Shown here one piece after another: positions 1,514-52,165 of a DNA stretch of 64,000 nucleotides. Origin of the DNA: Actinomycetota bacterium (GTDB lineage Bacteria > Actinomycetota > UBA4738 > HRBIN12). Position 1 is the first letter of the stretch. Every line of letters starts with the position of its first letter. Location: assembly GCA_026003015.1 (NCBI GenBank), contig BPGL01000001.1, forward strand, positions 902,913 through 966,912. The letters are read 5' to 3'. The position numbers were made by a program, and so were the translations under genes. The notes under the pieces are model-generated. The model was not told the DNA's origin. It did no database searches and worked only from the letters and a program-made list of their open reading frames with translations.

Positions 1514-1566
1514 GGGGTTCGCGCGCGAGGCGGGCGGGAGCCTAGCAGCACCGCCCGGACGCGCAG

Positions 1567-1592: not shown

Positions 1593-1609
1593 GACGACGC
1601 CGACCGACG

Positions 1610-1981: not shown

Positions 1982-2015
1982 GCTGCCCCCTTTCGTCTCC
2001 CGACTCCGACGGACG

Positions 2016-2243
2016 TCAGGACGCCATGCGCTTGAGGCGCCGGCGCTCCCGCTCGCTCATGCCTCCCCACACCCCGTAGCGCTCATCGCGCCGAAGCGCG
2101 TAGTTGAGGCACTCGATGCGCACGGGACACTCGCTGCAGATCCTCTTGGCCTCCCTCGATGAGCCTCCCTTCTCGGGGAAGAAGATCTCCGGGTCGTAGT
2201 CCCGACACCGCGCTCGCTCCTGCCACGGGATGTAGTGATGCAC
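2016..2243 (-). CDS. whiB: WhiB-family (Wbl) [4Fe-4S] transcriptional regulator
   Basis: 75 aa. Four Cys in the C..C-x(n)-CxxC..C arrangement (CRDYDP...ICSECPVRIEC) plus the GVWGG turn and a basic tail, the canonical Wbl signature. Confidence 0.9.
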   Translation of the reverse strand: MHHYIPWQERARCRDYDPEIFFPEKGGSSREAKRICSECPVRIECLNYALRRDERYGVWGGMSERERRRLKRMAS

Positions 2244-2262
2244 GCTCGTCTCCCCCCGAAAT

Positions 2263-2278
2263 CACACCTGTGTGATTC
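2263..2278. promoter_or_regulatory. Inverted repeat ATCACA-cctg-TGTGAT in a locally AT-richer island 20-35 bp upstream of the whiB start
   Basis: Seen directly in the sequence. The TGTGA/TCACA half-sites resemble CRP/FNR-family operator half-sites. Mycobacterial whiB1 is known to be CRP-regulated. Confidence 0.3.
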
Positions 2279-2426
2279 TGAGGGAAGAACCACCCCGGTG
2301 GCAAGAGGCGCACCGAAGAAGTTCTCTGCCTCATCCCTCATGTCCCGTCAATCGTGTCGTGCCTGCTGGCGCGTTGCAAGCCATCCCGACGGATTTGTCG
2401 CTCGTCAACCAGATTGACGGATCTGG

Positions 2427-25001: not shown

Positions 25002-25052
25002 GGTCGTCGCTGCCCAGAGCCCGTCCCGGCCCGCGGCGATAGGCTGGTCCGC

Positions 25053-27793: not shown

Positions 27794-28288
27794 GTGTTCG
27801 CCCGGTACTTCGTCGAGCTCCCGCTGGCCGCCCCGGTCGTCGAGGAGCTGCTGCTTCGCGAGCCGGGCGCCTGGCTCCCGCTGATCGCGGAGGAGGCGAA
27901 CGGTCACGGCGACCGGCTGCTCGCCGAGATCGGCTTCGGCGAGGCGGTCCGCGTCCGTCGGAGGGTCGCCATCGAGCTCGGCGCGCCCGTCCGGATGCCG
28001 AGCAAGACGGTCGTGCCGCTGCGCTGGCGCCCGATCGGCGCCGGGGGGTTGTTCCCCGACCTGGACGCCGATCTCGAGATCGCGGCCCTCGGGCCCCAAC
28101 GCGCACAGGTCGCGATCAGCGCGCGCTACGTGCCCCCGTTCGGAGCGATCGGTCGGGCGATCGACCGGGTGGTGATGAACCGGGTCGCCGAGGCGACGAT
28201 CAAGGACTTCCTCGACCGGGTCGGCGACGCCCTCGCCGCCCAGGCCCGCTCGGACGGCGCGGCCGCTGGCGCGCCCGCACAGGGTTAG
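27794..28288 (+). CDS. Hypothetical protein (164 aa)
   Basis: ORF with coding-like composition immediately upstream of the response regulator, with only a 1-nt gap. No recognised domain. Confidence 0.4.
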   Translation: MFARYFVELPLAAPVVEELLLREPGAWLPLIAEEANGHGDRLLAEIGFGEAVRVRRRVAIELGAPVRMPSKTVVPLRWRPIGAGGLFPDLDADLEIAALGPQRAQVAISARYVPPFGAIGRAIDRVVMNRVAEATIKDFLDRVGDALAAQARSDGAAAGAPAQG

Positions 28289-28289
28289 G

Positions 28290-28970
28290 ATGCGGGTTGT
28301 GGCGAAGACGCCGCCGCTGCGCGTGATGATCGTCGACGACCACGAGGTCGTGCGCAACGGGATCCGCGCGATGCTCGCCGGCGAGGAGGACGTCGTCGTC
28401 GCCGGGGAGGCCGGTTCGGTGCGCGAGGCGATCGACGAGGCCGACCGCACGCGCCCCGACGTGATCGTGATGGACGTCCGGCTGTCCGACGGCAGCGGTA
28501 TCGAGGCGACGCGTGAGATCCGCGCGCGCCATCCGGAGGCGAGGGTGCTGATGCTCACCTCGTTCGCGGACGACGAGGCGCTGTTCTCCTCGATCATGGC
28601 CGGCGCCTCGGGCTACGTTCTCAAACAGGTGCGCTCGGGGGAGCTCCTCCGCGCGATCCGAACCGTTGCAGGCGGCGGCTCTCTGCTCGACCCGGACGTG
28701 ACGACCGCCGTCCTCGACCGCCTGCGGCGGGGCAAGCACCTCTTCAAGGACGAGCGGCTCGCGCGCCTGTCCCCCCAGGAGGAGCGGATCCTCGGCCTCG
28801 TGGCGCAGGGGCGGACGAACCGCCAGATCGGCGACGAGCTCGGGCTCGCGGAAAAGACCGTGAAGAACTACGTGTCCAGCATCCTGAGCAAGCTGGAGGT
28901 CGCCCGTCGGGCCGAGGCCGCCGCGTACCTCGCCCGTCACACGGCGACGCCCGGATCGGTCGACGGCTGA
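28290..28970 (+). CDS. NarL/LuxR-family two-component response regulator (DosR/DevR-like)
   Basis: A receiver domain (VMIVDDHEVVRNGIRAML ... DVIVMDVRLSDGSG) and a C-terminal LuxR-type HTH (LSPQEERILGLVAQGRTNRQIGDELGLAEKTVKNYVSSIL). Confidence 0.85.
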   Translation: MRVVAKTPPLRVMIVDDHEVVRNGIRAMLAGEEDVVVAGEAGSVREAIDEADRTRPDVIVMDVRLSDGSGIEATREIRARHPEARVLMLTSFADDEALFSSIMAGASGYVLKQVRSGELLRAIRTVAGGGSLLDPDVTTAVLDRLRRGKHLFKDERLARLSPQEERILGLVAQGRTNRQIGDELGLAEKTVKNYVSSILSKLEVARRAEAAAYLARHTATPGSVDG

Positions 28971-33058: not shown

Positions 33059-33104
33059 GGGTCGGCTCAGGGCCGCGTCGGGGCCGGGGGCTACGATACG
33101 CGCC

Positions 33105-34040
33105 ATGGCGCGGGTCGTGGTCGAGGGGTGGGCCCCCGAATACGGTGCGCCCATCGAGCCCGACGACGCCCTGGCGCCCGCCGAGGGCTCGGTGGGCGAA
33201 GACGTCGAGACCGCCGACTGGCGGCCCCGCGACGGCGTGGACGACGGCGTCGAGACCGTGGCGTTCGTCGACGGGGTCCGCCGCGTCGACGCCCGGCTCG
33301 TGATCGACGACCCGGAGGCCGGGCCCATCCCGGGGATCTGCGGCACCTACGCCGTGGGGGCCGTCGCATGGGACCGTCGACGCCCGGCGAGCGAGGTCGT
33401 GTCGGACCAGGTCGCGCGCCTCGCGGTGCTGGGGGGCGGCCGCGCCGAGGCGCTCCCGGCCACCGACCTCGACCCTCCGTACACGAGCGCCTCGACGCCG
33501 GCGACCGACCCGGCGGACCTGCTCCGCGAGCTCCACACCGCGATGCGCCGCGCCGAGGGCGCGGTCGCCAGCGAGCTCGCCGTCGGCTCCTTCGTCATCG
33601 CCGACGGACCGCTGAACGAACTCGTGCGCCGGCCGTGCGTCGGGCTCGTCAAGACCCACCGCGTGACCTACCTGTCCCCCGAGCGCAACCGGGTCGTCAG
33701 GGAGCTTGCCCCCGGGACGCGCACGCCGCTGTTCACGATCGCCGACTACCGTCGCTACTCGTGGTACGTGCGGATCGCGCGCGTCGCCTTCGGCCACGGA
33801 TGGTCCGGGATCGTCCGCTGCGAGGCCTCGGGCCAGCTGCCCCTCGAGGAGGTCGCGCGCCTCGCCGATCGCACCGCGGCCCTGCTGCCGCTCGTGGCGT
33901 CCGCGCCCCACCTGGACCCCCGCGCCCCCCAGAACCTCGTGCCGATCGGAGCCCTCGAACGCCGCCTGCGCCACCGGATGGGCGATCAGGGGCTCGTCGT
34001 GCGCGCCCTGCGGGAGGCGGCGGCCCGGGAGGTCGCGTGA
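33105..34040 (+). CDS. NurA-like 5'-3' nuclease (RNase H-like fold), first gene of a nurA-herA-sbcD-sbcC operon
   Basis: 311 aa. Contains the AFVDG and VIADGPLNE motifs, which resemble the conserved catalytic Asp motifs of archaeal NurA. Translationally coupled (4-nt overlap) to a HerA-like ATPase. Assignment is by motif and gene context only. Confidence 0.5.
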   Translation: MARVVVEGWAPEYGAPIEPDDALAPAEGSVGEDVETADWRPRDGVDDGVETVAFVDGVRRVDARLVIDDPEAGPIPGICGTYAVGAVAWDRRRPASEVVSDQVARLAVLGGGRAEALPATDLDPPYTSASTPATDPADLLRELHTAMRRAEGAVASELAVGSFVIADGPLNELVRRPCVGLVKTHRVTYLSPERNRVVRELAPGTRTPLFTIADYRRYSWYVRIARVAFGHGWSGIVRCEASGQLPLEEVARLADRTAALLPLVASAPHLDPRAPQNLVPIGALERRLRHRMGDQGLVVRALREAAAREVA

Positions 34041-35773
34041 GCCCGTCGCGCGTCGGGCGGGTGCTCGGGTCGGAGCACACGAGCACCTCGGCGTTCCGGG
34101 TCGTGATCGAGAACGACGAGTACCTGCAGCTCGACGACCTGGTCGTGGTCCGCACCCACGTCCCCAAGGTCGGCGAGGTGCGCACCTACGGGATCGTGAC
34201 CGAGGCCGAGGCCATCTACGAGGGAGCGACGTACGAGTCCGACACCCACCGGGTCGCCGAGCTCGGCATCCTGCCCGCCGAACGCGTGCGCACGGCCCGG
34301 GTCGCCGTGACGCGCGTCCACCCCGAGGTCTGGGTGGCGCCGGACCCCGGCGAGGTCGTGGAGCGCGCCGTCGGCGACGAGCGCGCGATGGCCCTGTACG
34401 CCGACGAGATGCAGCGCGCCCTGCCGGTCGGGCTGGGCCGCGACGGCCTCCCGGTGCCCCTCGACCTCGACTTCTTCGACGGCCGCAAGGGCGGACACAT
34501 GTCGATCTCGGGCGTGAGCGGGGTGGCGACGAAGACCTCCTTCGCGCTGTTCTTCCTGCGGATGCTCACCGCCCGACCCGACGTCGTCGGCGAGGGGGCG
34601 GCGAGCCTGCGGATCCTCGTGTTCAACGTCAAGGGCGAGGACCTGCTGTGGCTCGACCGTCCGAACCGGTTCCTCGACGACGAGGCCCGCGCGGCCTGGA
34701 GGGCGCTCGGCGTCGAGCCGGAGCCGTTCCCATCCGTTCGGTTCTGGGCCCCGCCCCGACGCCGTTCGGGCGACGTCATCGTGCCCGACACCTCCGCGCG
34801 GATCGAGGGCGTCGAGGCCTTCGCGTGGACGCCCCGCGAGTTCGTCGACGAGGGGCTCCTGCGGTTCTGCTTCACCGACGCGACCGACCAGCGCAACCAG
34901 ATCCCCTTCGTGCTCGAGCGCGTGCAGGCGCAGCTCGCGCGCCTGGCCGCCGACGCCGCCGGCATCCCCGGCGCGATCGTGCTCCCCCGGGACGGACGCT
35001 GGGCCTCGGGGGCGAGGCCGCGCGAGCCCGTCGCGCACCGCGAGGACGAGACGCTCCTCGTTGTCGACCTCGCCTCCCTCGCCGACGCGATCGGGTGGTT
35101 CCTCGAGCCCGAGGACGGCGGCGAGCCCCCGTACGCGTGGAGCGGGCGCACCGGAGGCGGGACGATCGCGGCGTTCCTCCGCCGCCTCCACGCGGCCGTG
35201 GGCCGGCTCGGCCACCTCGTGCGTGCGGGCCCGAGCCGTCGGATCGACCGGACGGCCGCCAACGTCACGGTGGTCGCCATCCAGACGCTCCCCGAGCAAG
35301 CGCAGCGCTTCGTCGTCGGCGCCCTGCTCGAGGAGACGTTCCGAGACAAGGAGGAGACCGGTCAGCGTCTCCCCCTGTCGGTGATCGTCCTCGACGAGCT
35401 GAACAAGTACGCGCCGCGGGAGGGAACGAGCCCGCTCAAGGAGATGCTCGTCGACGTCGCGCAGCGAGGCCGCTCGCTCGGCGTGCTCCTCGTCGGCGCG
35501 CAGCAGACCGCCTCGCGCGTGGCGCCCGAGGTCCTCGAGAACGCTGCGATCCGGGTCGCCGGACGCCTCGACGCCGCGGAGGCCGAGCGTGCCGAGTACG
35601 GCTGGATGCTGCCCTCGACCCGCGCGCGCGCCCGTCTGCTCAAGCCCGGCACCCTCGTGCTCGCCCAACCGCCGATCCCCGTCCCGCTCGTCGTCACGTT
35701 CCCCTTCCCCGCATGGGCGACGCGCCGCGAGGAGGTCGACGACCCAGGCGCCGACCCCTTCGACGGGCTGTAG
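34037..35773 (+). CDS. HerA-like hexameric ATPase/helicase (DUF87 family) with an N-terminal HAS-barrel
   Basis: An N-terminal beta-barrel (FRVVIENDEYLQLDDLVVVRTHVPKVGEVRTYGIVTE). A P-loop region ISGVSGVATKTSFALFFL, deviant in having TKT instead of GKT. A Walker B VIVLDELNKY. Confidence 0.75.
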   Translation: MSPSRVGRVLGSEHTSTSAFRVVIENDEYLQLDDLVVVRTHVPKVGEVRTYGIVTEAEAIYEGATYESDTHRVAELGILPAERVRTARVAVTRVHPEVWVAPDPGEVVERAVGDERAMALYADEMQRALPVGLGRDGLPVPLDLDFFDGRKGGHMSISGVSGVATKTSFALFFLRMLTARPDVVGEGAASLRILVFNVKGEDLLWLDRPNRFLDDEARAAWRALGVEPEPFPSVRFWAPPRRRSGDVIVPDTSARIEGVEAFAWTPREFVDEGLLRFCFTDATDQRNQIPFVLERVQAQLARLAADAAGIPGAIVLPRDGRWASGARPREPVAHREDETLLVVDLASLADAIGWFLEPEDGGEPPYAWSGRTGGGTIAAFLRRLHAAVGRLGHLVRAGPSRRIDRTAANVTVVAIQTLPEQAQRFVVGALLEETFRDKEETGQRLPLSVIVLDELNKYAPREGTSPLKEMLVDVAQRGRSLGVLLVGAQQTASRVAPEVLENAAIRVAGRLDAAEAERAEYGWMLPSTRARARLLKPGTLVLAQPPIPVPLVVTFPFPAWATRREEVDDPGADPFDGL

Positions 35774-35783
35774 CGCGCCGGCC

Positions 35784-36948
35784 GATGCGCATCCTGCACA
35801 CGAGCGACTGGCACCTGGGGCGCCGCCTGGGTCGCTACGACCGCGCCGAGGAGTTCGCCGCCGTGTGCCGGGAGATCGAGGGGATCGCGCGGGAGCGCGC
35901 GGTGGACCTCGTCCTGGTGAGCGGCGATCTGTTCGACCGTCCCGTGCCGCCGCTCGACGTGCTCCGTATGGGGATCGAGGCGCTCCGGTCCCTCGCCGAG
36001 CAGGCGCCGGTCGTCGTCGTCGCGGGCAACCACGACGCTCCGGAGCTGTTCGACACGCTCACCCCCCTCCTGGCCCCTCAGCGCGTCCACCTCGTCGGCT
36101 CGATCCGTCGGCCCGAGGAGGGCGGGGTGCTCGGCCCCGACGAGCTCGGCGTGCCCGCCGTCGTGGGGTGCCTCCCGTTCCTGCGCGAGGGCCGGGTCGT
36201 CGACTTCATGCGGGACGCCGGAACGTGGTACGGCGCCTACGCGGACCGCGTCGCCGCGCTGTGCCGGACCATGAGCGACGCGCTCGTGCGTCGCGCGGGC
36301 ACCGAGCTCGTCGCGCTGCTCATGGCGCACTTCCTCGTGAGCGGCGTGCGGATCGACCGCGAGGCGCCGCGCGGCGAGCGGGAACTGCACCTCGGCGAGG
36401 CGTACGCCGCCACCGCGCAGGCGATCCCACCCGGACCCCAGTACGTGGCGATGGGCCACATCCACGCACCCCAGCCCGTCCCCGGCGCCCCCGTTCCGGC
36501 CGAGTACGCGGGCTCCCCGCTGCCCCTGGACTTCGGCGAGGCGGGCGAGCGCAAGCGCGTCGCCATCGTCGAGGTCGAGCCGGGGCGGCTGGCCACCGTG
36601 ACCTCCGTCGAGCTGGCCGCCGGGCGGCCGCTCGTGCGCGCCCAGGGGCGCTGGAGCGAGCTCGAGGCGAGGGCCGAGGAGCTCGCCGACGCCTACGTCG
36701 ACCTCACGGTCGACGCGCGCGATGCGGCGCCCGACCTGGCCGACCGCGCCCGCGAACGCTTCCCCTTCCTCGTCCGGGTTCGCGCCGCCCGGCCCGCCGG
36801 CGCACCAGGGGCCCCCGTCGTCGAGGGACATCGCTCCCTGCCGGAGCGCTACGCCGACTACCGGCGCGAGGTGCACGGTCGCGATCCCGAGCCGGAGCTG
36901 CTGGCGCTGTTCCGCGAGCTGCTGGACGAGCTCGATGCGCCCGTGTGA
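35784..36948 (+). CDS. sbcD: Mre11/SbcD-family nuclease (calcineurin-like phosphoesterase)
   Basis: MRILHTSDWHLGRRLG...DLVLVSGDLFDR...VVVVAGNHDAP...GHIH phosphoesterase motifs I-V. Confidence 0.85.
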
Positions 36949-39490
36949 GCTCGCGCTGCGCGGGTTCCGCTCCTACCGCGCCGAGGCGCGGTTCGACTGG
37001 CGCGGACGGCGCCTCGTCGGGATCGTCGGGCCGATCGGGGCCGGCAAGTCCTCGATCCTGGACGCGATCGCCTTCGCCCTGTACGGGAAGACCCCAGGGG
37101 TTGGGCGGGACACCCGGTCCTTGATCCACCAGCTGTGCGACGAGTGTCACGTCGAACTGGTCTTCGAGGTCGACGGACAGATCTGGCGAGCGGTGCGCGC
37201 CCTGCGCCGCCGGGGACAGGCTGGCCACCAGCTCGAGCACCTCGCGGCCGACGAAGCGGACGCGCCGGTGCTCGAGCGGGTCGCGGGCGACCGTCCGATG
37301 ACCGCCCGCGTCGAACAGCTCCTCGGGCTCGACTTCGACGCGTTCTGCCGTTCGGTGCTGCTCGCCCAGAACCGCTTCGCGCAGTTGCTGCGCGCCACTC
37401 CCGCGGAGCGCGACCGCGTGCTGCAGGGGGTGTTCGGCTACGAGCGGGTCGACGCGCTGCGCCAGGCGGCGCGGGAGCGGATCGCCGGGCTCGCGGGACA
37501 GCTCGATGGGCTCGTGCGAGACCGAGAGCGGATCGAGCGAGCCCGCGAGGCGCTCGAAGGAGCGAGGACGGCTGAGCAGCGCGCCGGGGCTCGGGCGCGC
37601 GAGCTGGAGGCGGCGACCCCGCGCCTCGAGCGGCTCGACCGGGAGCGCGCCGAGGCCGAGGCCCTCGGCCGTGAGCTCGAGGCCGCCCGGACCGAGCTCA
37701 GGGCGATCGCCGCGGCGCTGCCGTCCCACGAGGAGATCGCCGCAGCGGCCACCGCGGGGCGCGGGGCCGACGAGCGCCTGGCGGCGGCCGAGCGCGATCT
37801 CGCGGCGGCGCTCGCCGATCGCGACGCGCGGCGGGCCGAGCTCGCCCAGGTCGAGGGGCGGGTCGGCGATCCGGCGCTGCTCGCGTCCTTCGAGGAGCTG
37901 GTCCGTCGCCACGAAGAGGAAGCCGCGGCGCTCGAGCGGGCGGCGGCCGAGCTCCAGGACGCGGAGGCAAGCGAGCGCGCGGCTCGGGACGACGAGCGCC
38001 GCGCCGCCGAGGAGGTCGCGGGCGCCGACCGGGCGGTGCGGGGGGCCGAGGAGACCGACCGCGCCGCGCAGGCGAGGCTCGAGGAGGCCCGCGCGGCGCT
38101 GGAGCGGGCGCTGCACGCGGACATGGCCGCGACGCTTCGCACGAGCCTCGCGGTCGGGGAGCCCTGCCCGGTGTGCGACCGGCCCGTGCACGAGCTCCCG
38201 CCCACCAGACGGGCACCGAAGGTGGACGCCGCGCGGCGGGCCCTCGACCGAGCGCAGGCGCGGGCCCGGGAGGCGGCCGAGGGGCTCGACGGCGCCCGAT
38301 CGACTCATGCCGCCGCGATCGCGACGCTCGAGGCCGCTCGGCGCGCGCACGAGGAGATCCGAACGCGTCGCACGCAGCTCGCCGCAACCCTCGAGGCCCG
38401 GCGCGCCGACCACGCGGCCACCGCCGCGGCCCTCGCCGAACACCTCGGCGAGGGCGATCCTCGCGCCCTGCTCGGGGCCCGGATCGCCGAGCTCGACGCC
38501 GCACGGGCGAGGCTGGACGAGGCGACCGCCCGCCTGGAGTCCGCGCTCACCGCGCGCGACGAGGCTGCGCGCGACGCCGAGCGGGCGCGCGGGGCGGTCG
38601 TCGAGCTCGCCAGCCGACTCACGCACGCCTGGGGACGGCTCGGCGAGGACCGCCGGGTACCGCCCGAGGTCGACGGCCTCGAGGCCGCCTTCGCGGACGT
38701 GGGCGAGGCGATCGTCGTCAAAGCCGACGAGCTCGCGGGGCGCTCGGCCGAGGCCGCCGCCCTGGGGCGGGCACGGCGCGAGGAGCGGGCCGCGGCGCTG
38801 CGGGCCCTCGGCCTCGAACCCGACGCCGACCCGGCTGCCGAGCTCCTGGCCGCGAGCCGGGCGCACGCGGACGCGCTCGCCCGCCTGGGTGAGCTCGAGG
38901 CCGAGGTCGAGGCCGCCGGCCAGCTCACCGAAGCGCTGGAGCGGACCGAGCGGCAGCTCTTGGTCGCTCGCACCCTCGAGGAAGACCTCCGAGCGGGGGG
39001 GTTCCTCACCTACCTGCTCGCGACCGGGCGCGCGGAGCTCGCCGCCGTCGGGAGCCACCACCTCGAGACGCTCACCGACGGGGCCTTCCGGTTCACGCCC
39101 GAGTTCCGCATCGAGGACCTCAACGCCGCGGGGTCGGTGCGCGCCGCCGAAAGCCTCTCGGGAGGGGAGACGTTCCTCGCCTCGCTCGCGCTCGCGCTGG
39201 GCCTGGCCGAGATCGTCGCCCGCGGCGGCGGACGCCTCGACGCCTTCTTCCTGGACGAGGGCTTCGGCAGCCTGGACCCCGAACACATCGCCCGCGCGAT
39301 GGACGGGATCGGGCGGCTCGTGGCTGGGCGCGCCGACCGCCTCGTCGTCGTCGTCAGCCACGTCGAGCAGATGAAGCAGGAGATCGAGGACCTCATCGTG
39401 CTGGACAAGGACGACGTCACCGGCGACACGCGGGTGATCCGTGGAGCCCGCCTCCGCGACGGGACCGAACGGCCCAGGCCGAACGTCTGA
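36945..39490 (+). CDS. sbcC: Rad50/SbcC-family SMC-like ATPase with a zinc hook
   Basis: Walker A GPIGAGKSSILDAI, a long Ala/Arg/Glu coiled coil, a CPVC zinc hook, and a C-terminal signature SGGETFLASLALALGL plus a D-loop FLDEGFGSLD. 4-nt overlap with sbcD. Confidence 0.85.
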
Positions 39491-39658
39491 CCGTCGCCCC
39501 CGGCGCATATCCCCCGGATGCGGCTAACCCACCGGGTGCGCCCTGCCGATAACCAACCCAACGGGTCATCCGAGGCCCCACCGAGCGGACCGGTCCCGCT
39601 GGGTGGTCGGCGCGGTGGGCCGGGGTGGACGTCCGGGTCGGACCGAGGATCGGGAGCG

Positions 39659-42643
39659 ATGAGCACGTCGGTAGCGGGAGCCAGGGGGGGACAGGTCGCA
39701 CGAACGCTCCTCGTCGCGCTGGCCGGAGTGCTCGCGCTCGGGGTGGCCCTCTCGTTCATGATGAGCCTGCGCGCGCGCAACGACGCGCGCAACCAGATCG
39801 TCGAGCAGGCGCGAACGATCGTCGAGCGGAGCCTCACGCTCGCGTTCCAACCGAGCGACGTGGAAGGACCCGTCGCTGCCGACCGCGCGGTCGAGCTCTC
39901 GGAGCAGCTGCGCGCGATCGTCCTGGACCCGACGGACTTCACCTCGGTCACCCTCTACGGGACCGACGGGACGATCCTGTACACGACCGAGATCTCGCGC
40001 ATCGGGACGCGGCTGGCGGGCGAGGAAGGCCGGATCGAGGAAGCCCTCAAGGGGATCACGCAGACGCGCACCGACGACGGTCGCTTCTCGACGCTCGTCG
40101 CCTTCCGCTTCCCCTCCGGCGCCGGCCGGCCCGCCGCGGTCGAGCTCGTCCGCGACGACGGGCCGATCGTCGCCGCGATCACGCCCTGGCGCACGATCTC
40201 GGCCTTCCTCGCCGTCGTGCTCGCGCTCCTCGGTCTCGCGACGTGGGTGGTGGCTCGCGTCACGAGCTCCACGACCGCCGCGATGGCGAGCCGGGTCGAG
40301 GCGGCCGTGCGCCAGGCGACGAGCGCGCAGCCCGGGCCGCACCGGCCCGAGCCGCGCCACCCGGGTCTGCGGGAGGAAGCCGAGGCTCGCCGACGGGCCG
40401 AGGAACGCGCCGAGGTCGCGGAGCAGCGACTCGCGATGCTGCAGGACCAGTACCGCAAGGCGCTCGAGGACCTCCAGCACCTGCGGGCGGTCGCGGCCCA
40501 GCCCGCCTCGACCCTGCCCGATCCGGCGCTCGAGGCCAGGGCCCTTCGCGCCGAGGGGCAGGTCCACACGCTCCAGGCCCAGGTCCAGCGCCTGACCCAC
40601 GAGCGGGAGGAGCTCGCGAGGCGGCTGCGCGACGCCGAGGCGGCGACCCCGACGACCGGGGCCGACGAGGCGGCCTTGCTCGAGGCCCGGCGCGAGGCGA
40701 TCGGGCTGCGCGCCGAGCTCGAGGGCGCCCGCGCTCAGATCGATCTCCTCGAGGCGGAGCTCGCGCGGGCCCGCGCGGACTCGGCCCCCGACGAGCGCAC
40801 CGCCGCGGAGCTCGCCACCGCCCAGGAGGCGCTCGAGGCGGCGCGGGCGCAGCTGGGGTCGATGGAGCGGGAGCTCGACGACGCCCGCGCGGAGCTGCGG
40901 ACGCTGCGGGCCGAGGAGCAGCGCGCCGCGATGCTCGAAGAGGACGTGCGGGGACTCCGGGCGACCCTCGAGAGCCTCGAGGCGTCCCATCGGGCCGAGC
41001 TCGTCGAACGAGAGGCGGAGCTCGAGGAGAAGGTGCGCGCGGCTCGTGAGGACTTCCAGCGCCAGCTCGAGGAGATCGAGCGCTCCTACGCGGGCCAGCT
41101 CGGCAAGCGGGAGTCCGATCTGGCCGCCCGGATCGCCGAGGCCGAGGCGGAGGCGCGACGCACGCAGCGCGAGCTCGAGGCCGTGCGGGCCGAGCTCGAG
41201 GCGGCCAGGGCCGAGGCGGCCGGCCGTGAGCAGCGCGTGCTGCAGGCCGCCGACGAGCTCGTCGCGATGCGGGCGGAACGAGATGCCCTGCAGGCCGAGC
41301 TCGAGGAACAGCGCCGCGTGGCGGCCGCGGCGTCCGAGCAGGCGCAGGTGGCGCTGCAGACCGCCGAGGAGCTCCAGGCCGAGATCGGGCGGGCCCACGA
41401 AGCCGTCGCCCAGCTGCGCGAGGAGCTCGTCGCGGAGCGGCTGAGCGCGAGCGAGGCCGCCGAGCGGGCCGAGCGGGCCGAGCGCGAGCGCGACGCCCTC
41501 GCGGCGAGGGCCGCCGAGCTAGGGCATCAGCTCGACGCGGCCGCCTCAGAGAACGCCGAGCTGAACCGCCGGCTGCAGGAGGTCGAGGCGCGCCGGCAGC
41601 TCGAGCTCGCCGACGACCAGGGGCGCGCGGCGATCGACGAGCTCCTCGCGGTGACCCAGGAGCGTCTGGCCGGGCAGACGGAGAAGCTGATGGCGGCCGA
41701 GGACCGCGTGCGCGAGCTCGAGCACGAGCTCGCGCGGGCGCTCGAGCGGATCGAGGTGACCGAGACGGAGCTGCGCACCCACCGGATGGCCGAGGCGCTC
41801 AAGGGCATGCGGGAGGACGGCGCGGGCGCCGAGGACGGCGCGGGCGCCGCCGCGCCGGCCGGCGCGACGCCCTCGTCGGCCTCGCCGGCCTCGCCGGCCG
41901 ATCCCCTGGCGCGTGAGCTGTCGCTGGAGGCGAAGAAGACCCTGGCCCGGATCGTCGGGATCACGCAGATCCTCAAGCACAAGCCCGACACGAAGGAACA
42001 GGCGCAGCTCCTGCGACAGCTGACCAACCACGCGAGGCGCCTGGACCGCACGGTCGCCGACCTGGCCGAGGCCGAGGCGCTCGCGACCGGTCGCCTCGAG
42101 CTGCAGATCAAGCGGACCGACCTCGCCGCGCTCGTCGAGCGGGTCGCGGAGGAGTCGGGGGTCGGCGCCGACCACGAGCTTCGGGTCGTCGCCGAGCCCC
42201 TCGCCATCGGGGTCGACCCCCAGCGCGTGGAGCAGCTCCTCGCGCAGCTGCTCGAGGCCGCCGGTGAGCGCACGCCGAACGGTCGGGACATCGTCGTGCG
42301 GGTCGCCGGCCACGACGAAGGCGGCCTGCTCGTGATCGAGGAGCCGCAGGACCCCAAGGGGGTCGTGCCGTCGCCGGTCGCACGCTGCCTCGCCGAAGCA
42401 CACGGAGGGCGCATCGAGGTGCGACCCGCCCCGGCGGGCGGCACCGAGACGCGGGTGATCCTTCCCGACGGCGCTCCCCCGCCGAGCGAGGAGATCAAGG
42501 TCCTCGTGGACGGGGAGCCCGACGCCGACGGGTGGGAGCCCGGTGCCGAGATGGTCCTCGTCCAGGAGCTGCACCGCCTCGCCGAGATGCCCGAGCCGCA
42601 GCGCAAGGGCGGGCGCTTCCGCCGGGCCGGCCGGAAGGGATGA
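39659..42643 (+). CDS. Membrane-anchored coiled-coil protein with an extracytoplasmic sensor-like domain and a degenerate histidine-kinase-like C-terminus
   Basis: Two TM segments (LLVALAGVLALGVAL and ISAFLAVVLALLGLATWVV) flank a ~190-aa loop. A ~500-aa Ala/Glu/Arg/Leu coiled coil follows. The C-terminal DHp-like region LTNHARRLDRTV retains a His, but the N box (LLEAAGE) and G box are degenerate. I place the start at the ATG at 39659. Confidence 0.6.
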   Translation: MSTSVAGARGGQVARTLLVALAGVLALGVALSFMMSLRARNDARNQIVEQARTIVERSLTLAFQPSDVEGPVAADRAVELSEQLRAIVLDPTDFTSVTLYGTDGTILYTTEISRIGTRLAGEEGRIEEALKGITQTRTDDGRFSTLVAFRFPSGAGRPAAVELVRDDGPIVAAITPWRTISAFLAVVLALLGLATWVVARVTSSTTAAMASRVEAAVRQATSAQPGPHRPEPRHPGLREEAEARRRAEERAEVAEQRLAMLQDQYRKALEDLQHLRAVAAQPASTLPDPALEARALRAEGQVHTLQAQVQRLTHEREELARRLRDAEAATPTTGADEAALLEARREAIGLRAELEGARAQIDLLEAELARARADSAPDERTAAELATAQEALEAARAQLGSMERELDDARAELRTLRAEEQRAAMLEEDVRGLRATLESLEASHRAELVEREAELEEKVRAAREDFQRQLEEIERSYAGQLGKRESDLAARIAEAEAEARRTQRELEAVRAELEAARAEAAGREQRVLQAADELVAMRAERDALQAELEEQRRVAAAASEQAQVALQTAEELQAEIGRAHEAVAQLREELVAERLSASEAAERAERAERERDALAARAAELGHQLDAAASENAELNRRLQEVEARRQLELADDQGRAAIDELLAVTQERLAGQTEKLMAAEDRVRELEHELARALERIEVTETELRTHRMAEALKGMREDGAGAEDGAGAAAPAGATPSSASPASPADPLARELSLEAKKTLARIVGITQILKHKPDTKEQAQLLRQLTNHARRLDRTVADLAEAEALATGRLELQIKRTDLAALVERVAEESGVGADHELRVVAEPLAIGVDPQRVEQLLAQLLEAAGERTPNGRDIVVRVAGHDEGGLLVIEEPQDPKGVVPSPVARCLAEAHGGRIEVRPAPAGGTETRVILPDGAPPPSEEIKVLVDGEPDADGWEPGAEMVLVQELHRLAEMPEPQRKGGRFRRAGRKG

Positions 42644-42653
42644 GGTCCCCGCG

Positions 42654-43847
42654 CTACGTCGCGGGCTCCAGGCGGAGGAGCATGGCGTCCCCCTGACCGC
42701 CTCCTCCGCAGATCGCGGCGCCGCCAACGTCCACCCGGCGGCGCCGCATCTCGTAGGCCAGCGTGAGCACGAGCCTCGCACCGCTGGCTCCGATCGGATG
42801 CCCCAGGGCGACGGCGCCGCCGTTGACGTTCACGAGGTCGTCGTCGAGGTCGAGCATCCTCGTCGCGTGGTGGGCCACCGCCGCGAAGGCCTCGTTGATC
42901 TCGACGAGCCCCAGATCGTCCACGCTCAGGCCGGCCCGATCGAGGGCCGCTCGCAGCGCGAGCGCCGGCACCGTGTGCAGCGACGGGTACCGGTCGGCCG
43001 ACATGCCGTAGCCGGCGATCGTGGCCAGCGGGCGCAGGCCGAGCCGCTCCGCGGCCTCCGCGCTGGCCACGACGACCGCGGCGGCCCCGTCGGAGATCTG
43101 CGAGGCGTTGCCGGCGGTCACGGTGCCGCCCTCGCTGAACGCCGGCGCGAGTCGGCCGAGGGCCTCGACGGACGTGTCGGGGCGGATGCCCTCGTCGCGC
43201 TCGACGACGACCGGATCGCTGCGACGTTGCGGGACCTCGACCGGCACCACCTCCTCCGCCATCCGGCCCTCCTCCCAGGCGGCGTGGGCGCGCGCATGGG
43301 AGCGCGCCGCCCAGCGGTCCTGGTCCTCGCGGGCGATCGCCAGCTCCGCGTTCATCGCGTCGGTGCCCGCCCCCATGTGTCGATCGTCGAAGGCACACCA
43401 CAGGCCGTCGTGGATCATCGCGTCGAGCATCGGGGCGTTCCCGAGGCGCTTGCCGCTGCGGGCGTCCGGGAGGACGAAGGGCGCGTTCGTCATCGACTCC
43501 ATGCCGCCGGCCACCGCCACCTCGATCTCGCCGGCGCGGATCATCTGATCGGCCATCGCGATCGCCGACATGCCCGACAGGCAGACCTTGTTGACGGTGA
43601 TCGCCGGCACGCCGATCGGGATCCCGGCCGCGACCGCCGCCTGCCGAGCCGTGATCTGTCCCTGGCCCGCTTGGATCACGTGGCCCATGATCACGTAGTC
43701 GACGAGATGGGGGGCGAGGCCGGCTCGCTCGAGCGCGGCCCGGATCGCGATCGCCCCGAGGTCGACCGCGCGCAGCGGGGCCAGGCCGGCCCCGAACCGC
43801 CCGATGGGCGTTCGGGCGCCCGCCACGATCACGGACCGGGTCCTCAC
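42654..43847 (-). CDS. Acetyl-CoA C-acetyltransferase (thiolase II)
   Basis: Active-site region NKVCLSGMSAIAMA and a C-terminal GHPIGASGARLV...CGGGGQG thiolase signature. Confidence 0.9.
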   Translation of the reverse strand: MRTRSVIVAGARTPIGRFGAGLAPLRAVDLGAIAIRAALERAGLAPHLVDYVIMGHVIQAGQGQITARQAAVAAGIPIGVPAITVNKVCLSGMSAIAMADQMIRAGEIEVAVAGGMESMTNAPFVLPDARSGKRLGNAPMLDAMIHDGLWCAFDDRHMGAGTDAMNAELAIAREDQDRWAARSHARAHAAWEEGRMAEEVVPVEVPQRRSDPVVVERDEGIRPDTSVEALGRLAPAFSEGGTVTAGNASQISDGAAAVVVASAEAAERLGLRPLATIAGYGMSADRYPSLHTVPALALRAALDRAGLSVDDLGLVEINEAFAAVAHHATRMLDLDDDLVNVNGGAVALGHPIGASGARLVLTLAYEMRRRRVDVGGAAICGGGGQGDAMLLRLEPAT

Positions 43848-43857
43848 GCCCGGAAGT

Positions 43858-45627
43858 CTAGGTGCGAGCCGCGACGGCGCGCTCGATCACGTCGAGGATC
43901 TCCTCTCGGACCAGCTCGTCGCGCTCCAGGAGGGCATCGCGCAGCGCGGTGTGCACGTCGGTGTTCTCCGCGAGGACGGCCCGGGCCCGCTCGCGCTGCG
44001 CGTCGAGGATGCGCTCGACGTGACGGCGGGCGGACTCGTCCGCGAGGACCTTCGCGACCAGGTTCGAGCGCCCGAGCCTCCCGTCCTGCACGGCCTCGAA
44101 GCTCACGAGCGAACCCGCCATCCCGAACGCGCCGACCATCCGGCACGCGAGCTCCGTCGCCGTCGCGAGGTCGGCGCCGGGACCGGTGCCGGTCTCGCCG
44201 AACCGGAGCTCCTCGGCCACGAGACCGCCCAACGCGATCGCGATCGAGGCCTCGAGCTCCGAACGCGTACGCGTGAAGCGCTCCTCCTCGTCGCTGTGCG
44301 CGAGGAGCCCGAGCGAGCCCCGGCGCTTGATGATGGACAGCACCTCGAGCCGTCGACCCTTGCCGAGCACGTAGGCGACCGTCGCGTGCCCGGCCTCGTG
44401 CGTGGCGATCGCGAGGCGTTCGTCGTCGGTGTAGGTGACCGGCTGCTTCGTGCCGACCTCCTCGGTCATCTTCGCCTCGATGACGTCGTCGAGGTTCATC
44501 TGCTTGCGTCCATCACGCAGGGCAACGAGCAGCGCCTCGTCGAAGAGGTGCTCGATCATCACCGGCGTGTAGCCGAACGTGTCGGCGGCGATCCGATCGC
44601 GCACGGCGTCCTCGTCGAGCTGCTCGTGGTGCGCCTTGCGCGCGAGGAAGAAGTCGATGAGGTCGCGCCGCTCCTGCTTCGTCGGCACGTCGAAGTAGAG
44701 GCGCCGATCGAACCGACCCGGGCGTAGCAGCGCGGGATCGAGCGCGTCGCCGCGGTTCGTCGCGGCGATGAGCAGGATGTTGTGGTAGGCGGGGCGCATC
44801 GCGCACAGCTGGCGGTTCGGCGGCAGGAAGCCGTTGAGCCAGGTGATCGCGCGCGCGCGCAGCCGATCGGCCAGGGGCGGCTGGTCGAACGACTGCATCT
44901 GGATCAGCAGCTCGTTCACCATGCTGCTCCCGCCTAGGTCGATGAACGGAGCACGGGCACGCCCGAGGTCGTCGGCCGCTTGGGCCGCGGCGGCTGCGAC
45001 GCCGCCGCGCGAGGCCCCGATCGCGTCGATCTCCTCGATGAAGCCGATCGCGCCCCCTTCCTTGCGCGCGGCCTTCCGGAGCGCCTTGAAGAACGACCGG
45101 ATCCGGAACGCCGTCATCCCCGACCACATCGACTGGAAGGCCGGGGCCGAGATGAACAGGAAAGGCACGCCGGCCTGCTTGGCCATCGCCTTGGCCAGGT
45201 AGGTCTTTCCGGTACCGGGCGGACCCTCGAACAGCACGCCGCGCCGCGGGGTGCCGCCGAGCTCCTCGCGGAACGTCGCGTACCCGAGGAACACGTCGAG
45301 GGTGCGCACGACCTCGTCGACCTGGTGATCCAGCCCTCGGATGTCGGTGAGACCTACCTCGACCTGCTCGGGGTAGACGGTGATGTGCGGCGAGCGCCCG
45401 TTGATCAGCGGCAGAGCCGCCATCAGGACGATCGCGATGAAGATGCCGATGACCGGCAGGAAGTAGTACCAGTCGGGCGGAAGGGTCAGCCGAAGACCCG
45501 TCGGATGGCGCCGCCAGAGCAGGTACAGGCCGAGATCGAAGACGGCGACGACGACGATCGCCTTCACGATCCGCCGCAGGCGCGTGCGCTCGCGCTGGCG
45601 GAACACGTCGGCGGAGCCCTCCCGGAC
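43858..45627 (-). CDS. FtsH-like membrane AAA+ ATPase / zinc metalloprotease (short periplasmic loop)
   Basis: Two TM helices, Walker A GPPGTGKTYLAK, SRH region, and an HEAGH zinc-binding motif. The start is uncertain (candidate GTG near 45627). The track ORF extends to 45978 and overlaps the divergent regulator. Confidence 0.75.
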   Translation of the reverse strand, partial: VREGSADVFRQRERTRLRRIVKAIVVVAVFDLGLYLLWRRHPTGLRLTLPPDWYYFLPVIGIFIAIVLMAALPLINGRSPHITVYPEQVEVGLTDIRGLDHQVDEVVRTLDVFLGYATFREELGGTPRRGVLFEGPPGTGKTYLAKAMAKQAGVPFLFISAPAFQSMWSGMTAFRIRSFFKALRKAARKEGGAIGFIEEIDAIGASRGGVAAAAAQAADDLGRARAPFIDLGGSSMVNELLIQMQSFDQPPLADRLRARAITWLNGFLPPNRQLCAMRPAYHNILLIAATNRGDALDPALLRPGRFDRRLYFDVPTKQERRDLIDFFLARKAHHEQLDEDAVRDRIAADTFGYTPVMIEHLFDEALLVALRDGRKQMNLDDVIEAKMTEEVGTKQPVTYTDDERLAIATHEAGHATVAYVLGKGRRLEVLSIIKRRGSLGLLAHSDEEERFTRTRSELEASIAIALGGLVAEELRFGETGTGPGADLATATELACRMVGAFGMAGSLVSFEAVQDGRLGRSNLVAKVLADESARRHVERILDAQRERARAVLAENTDVHTALRDALLERDELVREEILDVIERAVAART

Positions 45628-45820
45628 GAGCCGAGAGCCGGCGAGCAGCGCCGCGGGTCCTGCGTGGCTGTCGTTGCGTTCGCGCACCTGGTGCCGTCCT
45701 CGGGCGCGCCCGCCGGACGGCGGGTCGCACGCCCAGCGTACGACGGAGGGCCCGATCGAACATCGGCCCTTCGGTCCGAAGGCACGGCCGGGGGGTCGGC
45801 TCGCGGTAGGGTGAGCGTCC

Positions 45821-46198
45821 ATGGCCGAACGTCCGACGAGCGGCCCGGGCCGGAGGTCTCCGGGCGACGACCGCGAGGTGGTCGGCGGTCTGCTGCGACG
45901 CCTGCGGCGCGCCGCGGGGTTCCGATCGGTGGAGGCCGCGGCGACGACGCCGGGGTGCCCGGTCTCCCGCCAGACCATCTACACCTACGAGCGCGGCGAG
46001 CTCCTGCCGCCGCTTTCCCAACTCCTGGAGCTCGTCGAGTTCTACGTGCTGCGCGACGATCGCCCCGGCCGAGGGACGGACGAGGAGCTGCGGATCCTCG
46101 GCGTCGCGACCGTCGTGCGGGCGCTGTACCTGCCCGCCTACCACGTCGTGCGCGCCTGGGAGCTCATCAACCGCCTCCAGGCAGGAGGACGCGGGTGA
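45821..46198 (+). CDS. XRE-family helix-turn-helix transcriptional regulator
   Basis: LRRLRRAAGFRSVEAAATTPGCPVSRQTIYTYERGELLPPLSQLLELVEFY matches the HTH_XRE pattern. Translationally coupled to the epimerase. Confidence 0.55.
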   Translation: MAERPTSGPGRRSPGDDREVVGGLLRRLRRAAGFRSVEAAATTPGCPVSRQTIYTYERGELLPPLSQLLELVEFYVLRDDRPGRGTDEELRILGVATVVRALYLPAYHVVRAWELINRLQAGGRG

Positions 46199-51161: not shown

Positions 51162-52112
51162 TCACGGAGCCCGCCCCAACACCGGCCCCGGCACAGCCTC
51201 CGGGTCGGCCGCGGGGCAGACCTCGACCCGCGGGCACCAGGCGCACCAAGGCCCCGGGGCCAGCACGGGGGTGCCACCCGCCGCGAGATGCGCCGCGTCG
51301 CGCGCCGCGGCGACCAGGCGTTCGGCCGCGTGCTGGAGCACGCGTTCGTCGACGTCTTCGGCCTGCCACGTCCCTGCCTCGAGGTAGAAGGTGGCCACCC
51401 GGTAGGGAGGCACGCCGAAGCGGAGCGCGAGGAGCAGGGCGTACACGCGGAGGTCCGCCGCGTGCTCGGGCCGGGCGGCGCCCGTCTTCAGATCGAGGGC
51501 GAGTCGGGTCGCGCGCAGCGGGGCATCCGCGTCGGGCAGCCCGAGCACGAGGTCGATCTGCCCGGAGAGCACGAGCCTTGCGTCGAGGAACTCCGCACGC
51601 AAACGCAGCTCGGGGATCGGCGCGAGCGCGCTCCGGAGCTCGCGCAGCGGCGGGAACGACGCTCGGAACAGCGTCAGGCGTCGCGCGGCCTCGGCGAGGG
51701 CTTCCTCCTGCCCCCGTTCGCCGAGCGCGGCCCAGTGCACCGCGAAGGGGTCCTCCCGATCGACGAGCCGCCGGGCGGCGATCGAGGCGACCTCGAAGGG
51801 ATCGAGGGGCGACCGAGCGGTCATGTCGACCTCGACGGCGCGGTGCGCGAGCACCCCGGCCGCCGTCGTCGGCGTGTGGGCGAAGCGAGCGTGCTCCCCC
51901 GCGAGCTGCGCTTGGAACAGGCCCCCGCATCGCCCGTGCGCCCGAAGCCGCTCCTTCGTGAGCCAGACCGCCTCGCGTAGCTCGAGGTCGGCCAGCGCGC
52001 GCTCGATCCGGTCGCGCAGACGCCGAACGAGGTCGGCGGCGACGACGGGGCGCTCCTGCGTCCCGATCAGCTGCTCGACGGTTCGTCGCTGAGGCTCGGT
52101 GAGCTCGGCCAC
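51162..52112 (-). CDS. PD-(D/E)XK nuclease family protein with a Cas4/AddB-type four-cysteine cluster (RecB-family exonuclease)
   Basis: N-terminal Cys (HGRCGG) and a C-terminal CAWCPRVEVC cluster typical of Fe-S-containing Cas4-like nucleases. The central region has D/E...K-like motifs. Confidence 0.65.
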   Translation of the reverse strand: MAELTEPQRRTVEQLIGTQERPVVAADLVRRLRDRIERALADLELREAVWLTKERLRAHGRCGGLFQAQLAGEHARFAHTPTTAAGVLAHRAVEVDMTARSPLDPFEVASIAARRLVDREDPFAVHWAALGERGQEEALAEAARRLTLFRASFPPLRELRSALAPIPELRLRAEFLDARLVLSGQIDLVLGLPDADAPLRATRLALDLKTGAARPEHAADLRVYALLLALRFGVPPYRVATFYLEAGTWQAEDVDERVLQHAAERLVAAARDAAHLAAGGTPVLAPGPWCAWCPRVEVCPAADPEAVPGPVLGRAP

Positions 52113-52165
52113 GCCGCGATCCTAGGCGCCTGCACCGACGCGGCGCCGCTGGTAGGGTTCGGCCG

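Follow-up and report, generated by a model that had tools for sequence, protein, structure and literature searches.

The 64,000-nucleotide stretch of Actinomycetota DNA analyzed here (contig BPGL01000001.1 of assembly GCA_026003015.1, positions 902,913 to 966,912 of the forward strand; hereafter the window) carries, directly downstream of a nurA–herA–mre11–rad50 repair cassette, a gene for a 994-residue protein that is very probably a real, conserved and catalytically dead member of the histidine kinase fold. We favor the reading, at a probability of roughly 0.65, that this orphan pseudo-histidine kinase acts as a non-enzymatic, membrane-tethered docking scaffold, because the best conservation falls in three blocks of its coiled coil, at the tip of its DHp hairpin and in a C-terminal helix while the catalytic residues have been lost. 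An original prediction, made by a model from the sequence alone, had described a membrane-anchored coiled-coil protein of about 1,000 residues, and the length, two transmembrane (TM) helices and long coil found here agree with it. The gene and the run ahead of its start codon are as follows.

39659..42643, plus strand: coding sequence of the Cache / coiled-coil / pseudo-histidine-kinase protein, 994 amino acids (aa), running from the ATG at 39659 to the stop codon at 42643
39645..39656, plus strand: purine-rich Shine–Dalgarno-like run GAGGATCGGGAG ahead of the ATG, read off the sequence

The C-terminal part of the protein comprises a kinase-like module and a short helix.

41900..42085, plus strand: DHp-like helical hairpin, residues 748–809, placed by a profile alignment to HK853 and by AlphaFold2 (AF2) helices at 748–774 and 778–809
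42110..42466, plus strand: degenerate CA (HATPase_c-like) domain, residues 818–936, with neither the N-box Asn nor the ATP lid
42545..42583, plus strand: conserved C-terminal amphipathic helix, residues 963–975 (..ILVQELHRLAE), an AF2 helix over the same residues

In an AF2 model of the full-length protein, computed from an alignment of 65 homologues that also served for domain lengths and column identities, residues 748–936 have predicted local distance difference test (pLDDT) scores of 85–96 and form a DHp helical hairpin followed by a Bergerat-type α/β CA domain. The window protein scores below the Pfam gathering thresholds for both HATPase_c (18.5–23.5 bits) and HisKA (18.8 bits); homologues exceed them, and a profile of 16 C-terminal sequences matches HK853 with E=2.6e-13. 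A Foldseek search with the kinase module likewise returned HK853 (E=1.7e-11), as well as DivL at a TM-score of 0.71. The degenerate histidine-kinase-like C terminus of the original prediction is thereby borne out.

The catalytic residues fare differently from the fold. His260 of HK853, which marks the true H-box position, aligns to Leu756 (ELS-L-EAKK), and in 119 relatives, the set used for all counts of kinase columns, this position is Leu in 48, Val in 34, Met in 16, His in 6, Thr in 4, Ile in 4 and another residue in the rest. The His that the original prediction saw retained in the DHp segment LTNHARRLDRTV is H791 (LTNHARRL), which lies in DHp helix 2 and is unconserved (Tyr in 60 relatives, His in 38, Phe in 9). 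Asn376 and Asn380 of HK853 align to Gln863 and Ala867 (LLAQLLEAAGERT). The N box of the window protein, QLLAQLLEAAGERT, lacks Asn, just as had been read from its core LLEAAGE; the N376 column is Gly in 103 of the 119, and the N380 column is Ala in 44, Thr in 29, Asn in 20 and other residues in the remainder. The predicted degeneracy of the G boxes also emerged from the HK853 alignment: the G1 Asp, found in 118 of the 119 relatives, is Glu in the window protein, where the G1 Gly residues are gone, and past G1 there are ~10 residues against ~35 in HK853, the stretch that holds the remainder of G1 together with the F and G2 boxes. The DHp–CA length is fixed at 187–189 aa among the 65 homologues, and the deletion of the lid is therefore common to the close family.

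The acceptor His, the N-box Asn and the entire ATP lid are thus all missing across the close family, as a pseudokinase or scaffold would have it, and the case for this reading is stronger than the one the original prediction had made. Intact N, G1 and G2 boxes were absent on alignment, and an ordinary active kinase is ruled out by the HK853 alignment together with the column counts. The protein has the class I histidine kinase fold but none of the catalytic features by which that class is recognized, and it should therefore not be filed as a kinase. Around the tip of the DHp hairpin, at the end of helix 1, in the loop and at the start of helix 2, residues K773, H774, K779, Q781, Q783, L784, Q787 and L788 are invariant or nearly so; His774 (LKHK), at the very tip, is present in 119 of 119 relatives. 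In the C-terminal helix L967, E970, L971 and R973 are invariant, and the linker ahead of it varies from 24 to 47 aa.

Across the wider family the loss of kinase features was mosaic, and the family evidently descends from a working kinase. In the P0119/P0120 clade the canonical His is present (ELSHDAKK) beside a dead CA domain. P0193 (locus L082, 6063–8918) scores 63 bits for HATPase_c and has an N-box Asn, a G2-like GATGLSL and a full lid, with Asn at the acceptor-His position; P0194 (L087, 614–3070) also has a higher HATPase_c score.

Between the membrane and the kinase module, residues 236–720 form a segmented coil of ~485 aa, where a coil of ~500 aa rich in Ala, Glu, Arg and Leu had been predicted. 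The composition is 23% Ala, 18% Glu, 14% Arg and 12% Leu, and the region shows heptad periodicity and is predicted to be helical. The coil and its flanking linkers divide as follows.

40259..40363, plus strand: disordered Ala/Pro-rich linker 1, residues 201–235 (pLDDT <50 at 214–234)
40364..40495, plus strand: conserved coil block 1, residues 236–279 (column identity 0.84; surface positions 0.77)
40523..40777, plus strand: coil segments CC2–CC3, residues 289–373 (AF2 helices 289–328 and 334–373), variable in sequence and length
40808..41815, plus strand: long coil, residues 384–719, a presumed antiparallel hairpin (AF2 helices 384–559, 567–649 and 656–719)
40892..41098, plus strand: conserved coil block 2, residues 412–480 (column identity 0.81–0.83; surface 0.80; no indels)
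41315..41377, plus strand: predicted hairpin tip and indel hot spot, residues 553–573 (deletions, and an AF2 break at 560–566)
41540..41728, plus strand: conserved coil block 3, residues 628–690 (column identity 0.85–0.87; surface 0.80–0.86)
41816..41899, plus strand: disordered Gly/Ala/Pro/Ser linker 2, residues 720–747, joining coil to DHp (pLDDT <50 at 721–744)

Three blocks of this coil are conserved more strongly than the kinase remnant. Column identity is 0.84 over residues 241–270, 0.81–0.83 over 421–480 and 0.85–0.87 over 631–690, compared with 0.66–0.78 for DHp–CA and 0.44–0.50 for the first two linkers. At solvent-facing heptad positions identity is 0.77–0.86 in the conserved blocks versus 0.50–0.57 in the variable arms, which is the pattern expected of specific binding surfaces and not of a generic coiled coil. 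Block 1 (consensus PGLREE..ARRRAEERA..AE.RL..LQ.QYRK.LE.LQ) is recognizable even in the distant relatives P0146 and P0154, and block 2 reads EEQRAAMLE.., ASHRAELVEREAE.EEKVRA.RE.FQRQL. Block 3, with the consensus AENAELNRRLQE.EARRQLELADDQGRA.ID.LL.VTQERLAGQTEKL.AAEDRV.ELE, is the best-conserved stretch of the protein in the 65-sequence alignment; searched against the Protein Data Bank (PDB), its profile matched no known domain, the top match being tropomyosin at E=0.5.

The same alignment suggests how the coil is folded. AF2 predicts helices at 237–279, 289–328, 334–373, 384–559, 567–649 and 656–719 with pLDDT 60–80, and values below 50 at 214–234, 281–288, 375–385, 721–744, 943–961 and 977–989. 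Residues 410–718 are almost invariant in length, blocks 2 and 3 exactly so (87 and 91 aa), with 131–138 aa for the sequence-variable arm 497–627; the CC2–CC3 region, by comparison, ranges from 70 to 154 aa across the family. Indel hot spots at 314, 326, 371–378 and 721–737 coincide with AF2 helix breaks, and many of the indels are of 7 residues. The midpoint of 410–718 is residue 564, within the helix break at 560–566, and five homologues with a shorter arm (P0127, P0124, P0125, P0133 and P0128) carry a deletion of 21–28 aa at 553–573 (or 546–573). Given the near-invariant length, the break at the midpoint and these deletions, we infer that residues 384–559 pack antiparallel on 567–719, which would set block 2 against block 3 at the base of a hairpin. 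All three linkers of the protein (after TM2, before DHp and after CA) are Ala/Pro-rich. Linker 1 has 30–53 aa of A/P/V/Q composition across the family (column identity 0.50) and linker 2 has 23–38 aa (0.44); with these two linkers disordered, no continuous helix runs from sensor to DHp.

The N-terminal part anchors the protein in the membrane and carries a sensor.

39707..39775, plus strand: TM helix 1, residues ~17–39 (peak of 2.51 in a 19-residue Kyte–Doolittle window; AF2 helix 10–62)
39776..40189, plus strand: single Cache/PDC extracytoplasmic sensor, residues 40–177 (AF2 and Foldseek)
40190..40258, plus strand: TM helix 2, residues ~178–200 (hydropathy peak 2.50; AF2 helix 168–213)

Net charge is +2 at the N terminus, −6 in the loop and +2 after TM2. 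The two TM helices and this charge distribution place the N terminus inside, the 138-aa loop outside and everything past residue 200 in the cytoplasm. The two TM helices of the original prediction stand, and the flanked ectodomain is ~138 aa long and not ~190 aa; the suggestion that the protein spans the envelope is not supported, since only the Cache domain is external and the coil and kinase-like part, ~800 aa, are cytoplasmic by the same TM and charge assignment. The loop is sensor-like, as predicted, and has a genuine Cache/PDC fold by modeling and structure search. Residues 10–200 reach pLDDT ~95 in the full-length model, and the sensor modeled alone gives pLDDT 91.7 and a predicted TM-score (pTM) of 0.79. 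Between the two TM helices the predicted structure shows the PDC fold, in which a central antiparallel sheet has helices on its flanks and the N-terminal helix is long. With it Foldseek retrieved the WalK ectodomain (4ywz), DcuS (3by8), CitA (1p0z), KinD and Tlp3 at E=8e-5 to 2e-3 and TM-scores (target) up to 0.63, and chemoreceptor ligand-binding domains are also among the matches; for WalK, DcuS and CitA the E values run from 8e-5 to 1e-3, with a TM-score (target) of 0.62. Sensor length is invariant (137–138 aa in the 65 homologues). The window protein has no Pfam Cache match; its homologue P0106 scores 20.8 bits against sCache_3_2, short of the 28.4-bit cut-off, and P0194 has a weak precomputed match to the same family.

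That the Ala/Glu/Arg/Leu-rich translation might come from a wrong frame had been raised as a caution. In a window of ~75% G+C, the open reading frame (ORF) 39659–42643 has G+C fractions of 0.83, 0.50 and 0.94 at the three codon positions, with the same pattern in each 300-nt slice, so this translation is the true frame and not a mirror-frame artefact. The third-position value of 0.94, together with more than 300 full-length homologues, rules out a wrong-frame or low-complexity origin, and the coil is no artefact. An in-frame ATG at 39518 would lengthen the protein by 47 residues; we rejected it on the homologue N termini, which align to 39659, and on the Shine–Dalgarno-like run. Three minus-strand ORFs of 610–934 aa (36704–39508, 39566–41398 and 41527–43401) face rad50 and the pseudo-kinase gene and are high-GC mirror-frame artefacts, their GC-richest codon position being the first or second where measured.

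A search of 5.8 billion clustered proteins matched 324 homologues, the best at 63% identity and nearly all 960–1060 aa long, whose names are absent or automatic ('histidine kinase', 'chromosome segregation ATPase'). An exhaustive profile search of 1.84 billion representatives yielded 149 clusters (50% identity) at the cut-off of E<1e-30, and the wider family, of 614–1285 aa, has the same sensor, a coil of other length and the same C-terminal module. Third-position G+C, the 324 homologues, the 149 clusters and the invariant domain lengths establish the gene as real and under selection. By scanning one genome per GTDB species we found 101 relatives and kept 78 loci, all from metagenome-assembled genomes labelled uncultured Actinomycetota or Actinomycetes, with the exceptions of one 'Thermoleophilaceae' and one 'Planctomycetaceae'. 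No cultured organism or characterized member turned up in the homologue and profile searches, and no paper was found on the pseudo-kinase family or on a histidine-kinase-like neighbor of herA/nurA.

In the scaffold model that we favor, the protein would dimerize through DHp and coil, as histidine kinases do, and the three coil blocks, together with the DHp tip and the C-terminal helix, would be the surfaces by which it tethers or recruits partners at the membrane. The flexible linkers would exclude transmission by piston or rotation from sensor to DHp, and ligand binding by the Cache domain may instead change clustering or localization. The most likely clients would be the NurA–HerA–Mre11–Rad50 products, or a regulator or kinase bound as in DivL or RetS. 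On this model the family would probably make a clear example of a sensor kinase turned into a tethered docking platform, with the fold constrained, the acceptor His and lid lost and the coil most conserved. The probabilities that we attach to individual partners and roles overlap and need not sum to one.

The repair proteins encoded next door are tentative candidates for the docking partners. Their genes lie on the plus strand in the order below, behind a promoter motif of their own.

33077..33097, plus strand: PafBC-type (RecA-NDp) promoter motif GTCGG-N10-TACGAT, GTCGGGGCCGGGGGCTACGAT, 8 nt before the nurA start at 33105
33105–34040, plus strand: nurA (weak Pfam NurA match, E=0.0028, below cut-off)
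34037–35773, plus strand: herA (weak PADLOC HerA match)
~35773–36948, plus strand: mre11/sbcD (Pfam and NCBIfam)
36935–39490, plus strand: rad50/sbcC (Walker A at residue 32, CPVC hook at residue 411)

The identities of HerA and NurA are also drawn from the DUF87 and NurA Pfam matches of genes at the same positions in related loci. The overlap is 4 nt for nurA and herA, taken by analogy from L086, and 14 nt for mre11 and rad50; herA and mre11 abut or nearly so, and a 168-bp gap separates rad50 from the pseudo-kinase gene. Genes for a thiolase, an FtsH-like protease and an alcohol dehydrogenase (ADH) follow downstream on the opposite strand. The genomes of the relatives have a conserved backbone in common (thiolase 69–80% and ADH mostly 71–88% identical). 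The cassette is an archaeal-type four-gene operon inside an actinobacterial genome; the only bacterium in which NurA and HerA have been studied is Deinococcus radiodurans (PMC8708640).

The position directly downstream of sbcC, to which the original prediction had drawn attention, is confirmed, and the neighborhood recurs: the cassette adjoins the pseudo-kinase gene in 66 of 76 informative loci (2 of the 78 were uninformative).

54 loci: cassette immediately upstream on the same strand, the arrangement of the window
12 loci: cassette upstream, divergent
10 loci: no cassette; aconitase and 4HBT genes directly upstream

Among the distant relatives (~30% identity), 6 of 8 distinct ones have the cassette as neighbor, divergent at L081, L082 and L087, co-directional at L086 and convergent downstream at L083/L084 and L089; the P0190/P0257 subfamily (L085 and L088) has none adjacent. 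Cassettes fall into two types, A (as in the window) and B, that barely align: HerA and NurA give no BLASTP match at 1e-3, and identity is 29% over 110 aa for Mre11 and 31% over 146 aa for Rad50. Sister genomes have one or the other type at this chromosomal site. Type B is found at 10 of the 12 divergent loci (L001, L002, L003, L011, L033, L036, L065, L068, L070 and L079) and convergent downstream at L083/L084 and L089, and type-A-like cassettes are inverted at L052 and L078. The nearest relatives of the window protein, at L003 (61%) and L036 (58%), have type B, and the window has type A. Cassette type thus departs from the pseudo-kinase phylogeny, which suggests repeated replacement or inversion in situ. 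The cassette and the pseudo-kinase gene are almost the sole occupants between the backbone genes, and a functional link between them is plausible. Such a link, if real, would make the family a guide to the organization or regulation of end resection in a large group of uncultured soil Actinomycetota, and a testable pair of interaction partners would result.

The two transcription units have different upstream sequences. The motif before nurA conforms to tGTCgg(N10)tA(N3)T, the PafBC/RecA-NDp consensus of the DNA-damage response in actinobacteria (PMC8635444). Of 38 co-directional loci, 24 have it at about −29; where the cassette is arranged differently, 11 of 16 loci have it, with more variation in its distance from the start. 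The background is 0.006 per 240 nt. By this motif the cassette is very probably damage-inducible, from a leaderless or short-leader mRNA. No LexA SOS box with fewer than 3 mismatches was found upstream of nurA or in the gap between rad50 and the pseudo-kinase gene, and an excess of weak LexA-like matches reflects GC-rich codon content. Ahead of the pseudo-kinase gene lies an element of another kind.

39544..39553, plus strand: conserved upstream element TGCCGATAAC, a candidate promoter or regulatory site (CCGATAN conservation)

In 77 of 79 loci a CCGATAN stands no more than 131 nt ahead of the start (background 0.02 per 136 nt), and the TGCCGATAAC element lies 15–114 nt ahead of the start regardless of cassette arrangement, so the pseudo-kinase gene appears to have its own promoter. 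A cTGAAC often stands ~17 nt upstream of the element, and the two might represent an ECF-sigma-type −35/−10 pair, a guess on our part. Read-through from rad50 in the co-directional arrangement is possible. A scan of 39300–42900 for sigma-70 promoters and terminators gave nothing useful.

Several findings weigh against the scaffold reading or against the repair proteins as its clients. The function is deduced from which features are conserved and which are lost, and the full-length model on which the hairpin draws has a pTM of 0.35, with the coil at pLDDT 60–80. The invariant His774 might have a chemical role, and the lid and N-box Asn of P0193 mean that nucleotide binding may survive in parts of the wider family. 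As to clients, the case for the repair proteins is weakened by the 10 of 76 loci that lack a cassette beside the gene and by the gene's own upstream element; the PafBC motif was found upstream of it in 0 of 79 loci. All relatives, moreover, share one backbone and belong to a single, moderately narrow uncultured clade, so synteny alone is weak evidence.

A more specific form of the scaffold model would make the protein a dedicated accessory subunit of the NurA–HerA–Mre11–Rad50 double-strand-break machine, a membrane tether or regulator that would place or gate end resection, for example when the Cache domain senses an envelope or desiccation signal. We regard it as possible but doubtful. The 54 co-directional and 12 divergent loci speak for it, as do the relatives of ~30% identity, which mostly keep the neighborhood, in three orientations; two barely alignable cassette types both adjoin the gene, and L082 keeps the cassette even though its far-side gene encodes an acyl-CoA dehydrogenase. 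The PafBC-type promoter of the cassette is a further argument in its favor. Against it stand the gene's score of 0/79 for this motif and 77/79 for its own element, and the 10 loci and the P0190/P0257 subfamily without an adjacent cassette. A gap of ~150–170 bp sets the gene apart from rad50, whereas the four cassette genes overlap each other, local inversions between backbone genes would preserve adjacency without shared function, and the pseudo-kinase protein has no sequence relation to Rad50. Stated as a fifth, membrane-anchored component of bacterial NurA–HerA–Mre11–Rad50 repair, which would dock the resection machinery or broken DNA ends through the coil blocks and couple this to an extracellular cue sensed by the Cache domain, the idea is in our estimate unlikely; if true, it would connect two-component-type sensing with DNA-end resection in Actinomycetota in a way not described before.

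Paralogy with the neighboring Rad50 was rejected (best BLASTP E=0.37, no Walker A), and so was membership of a defense system, PADLOC giving only coil-composition matches to LmuB and JetC at 16–21 bits. SMC and Rad50 arms are architectural analogues only: like them, the coil is long, conserved in length, variable in sequence and probably folded back, but the window protein has neither a Walker A/B ATPase head nor a zinc hook, and the neighboring Rad50 has both. No SMC_N or AAA_23 Pfam match was found, and NCBIfam SMC matches, confined to the coil, reach 23–28 bits against cut-offs of 567–729.

Well-studied pseudo-histidine kinases number only a handful, DivL and RetS among them. DivL of Caulobacter crescentus, which signals without phosphotransfer, is likewise a membrane-anchored pseudokinase of the histidine kinase fold and has Tyr in place of the acceptor His; it carries cytoplasmic PAS domains in place of the external Cache domain and long coil of the window protein and keeps a full-length CA domain, and for the window protein regulator binding is a conjecture from conservation of the DHp tip. 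RetS of Pseudomonas aeruginosa, recovered by both the profile and the structure searches, is a periplasmic-sensor protein whose kinase module inhibits GacS through DHp–DHp contacts. Unlike the window protein, it has a 7TMR-DISMED2 sensor and receiver domains, keeps most kinase motifs and lacks a long coiled coil. The window protein groups with these two pseudo-kinases by function and not by membership of one homology family, in that the fold is kept and the phosphotransfer chemistry lost. It differs from both in its external Cache domain, its 485-aa segmented coil set between flexible linkers, coil blocks that outconserve the kinase remnant and a persistent repair-cassette neighbor.

A role of the DivL or RetS type, in which the dead DHp would bind a regulator or heterodimerize with an active kinase encoded elsewhere and so tune a conventional two-component pathway to the Cache input, is a second possibility, and we think it an unlikely one. 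The invariant or near-invariant residues around the DHp tip speak for it, since partner specificity in histidine kinases is determined by this region, from the C-terminal half of helix 1 through the loop into helix 2. Yet no partner kinase or regulator stands beside the gene in the relatives' loci whose gene tables we read, the sensor is unlikely to exert allosteric control across disordered linkers, and the model leaves unexplained why the coil blocks are better conserved than DHp–CA. The genes called at L001, L002 and L086, over flanks of 10 kb, include no Response_reg. The nearest regulator in the window, of NarL type, lies 10.7 kb upstream beside its own GAF-HisKA_3 kinase. The two (GAF-HisKA_3-HATPase_c kinase, 25002–26246, plus strand; NarL/LuxR-type regulator, 28179–28970, plus strand) form a DevS/DevR-like pair, the only two-component pair near the pseudo-kinase gene and of a different kinase class.

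Two further families share parts of the architecture. With class I kinases that have a Cache/PDC ectodomain, such as WalK, CitA and DcuS (HK853 is the best profile match), the window protein shares two TM helices flanking a Cache/PDC domain and a DHp followed by a CA domain; it departs from them in the missing acceptor His, N-box Asn and ATP lid (F and G2 boxes), in a 485-aa coil and two disordered linkers that replace a short HAMP, PAS or signaling helix, and in having no adjacent response regulator. Methyl-accepting chemotaxis proteins are an architectural analogue only, with two TM helices, an external Cache-type domain and a cytoplasmic hairpin that serves as a docking platform. The window protein has no MCPsignal or HAMP Pfam match and ends in DHp–CA, and its conserved parts would lie at the hairpin base, the predicted tip at 553–573 being the least constrained part of the arm.

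That the protein is a purely structural, cytoskeletal or membrane-organizing coiled coil, with the kinase-like end an evolutionary remnant, is improbable. A coil of ~485 aa with a fixed-length arm would suit such a role, as would the composition-level matches to SMC, tropomyosin, JetC and LmuB coils; however, DHp–CA, Cache domain and C-terminal helix are length-invariant, conserved and confidently folded and are therefore not decaying remnants, and conservation on the surface of the coil blocks points to specific partners and not to bulk assembly. Least probable of all, and very much so, is an unorthodox active phosphotransfer, whether through phosphorylation of His774 by another kinase or through a different mode of nucleotide binding: the invariance of His774 (119/119), the six relatives with His at the canonical position and the lid and N-box Asn retained by P0193 are outweighed by the lack of ATP lid, N-box Asn and G2 box in the window protein and its close family, by the place of His774 at the hairpin tip, far from the reach of CA in the AF2 model and in the established DHp–CA geometry, by a canonical H column that varies freely among hydrophobic residues, and by Lys or Arg at the H-box +4 position where the HisKA phosphatase motif has Thr or Asn.

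Other features of the neighborhood were recorded along the way. At L082, two extra genes lie between herA and mre11 (1530–3229, minus strand), one for a 199-aa HEAT_2 protein and the other for a 367-aa protein with a signal-peptide-like N terminus and a zincin-like HEVGH; the far-side gene of this locus encodes an acyl-CoA dehydrogenase and not the thiolase of the window. No structured RNAs or tRNAs were found in the window. A gene for a PD-(D/E)XK nuclease (PDDEXK_1) lies at 51162–52121 on the minus strand, 8.5 kb downstream of the pseudo-kinase gene, which makes it a further gene for DNA processing in the area; at L086, too, a gene of comparable length that encodes this Pfam domain lies downstream of the ADH gene. 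The FtsH-like gene (43858–45978, minus strand), which stands beside the thiolase gene in nearly all related loci, encodes a 706-aa AAA and peptidase M41 protein with an unusually long N-terminal region of ~240 aa before the AAA domain.

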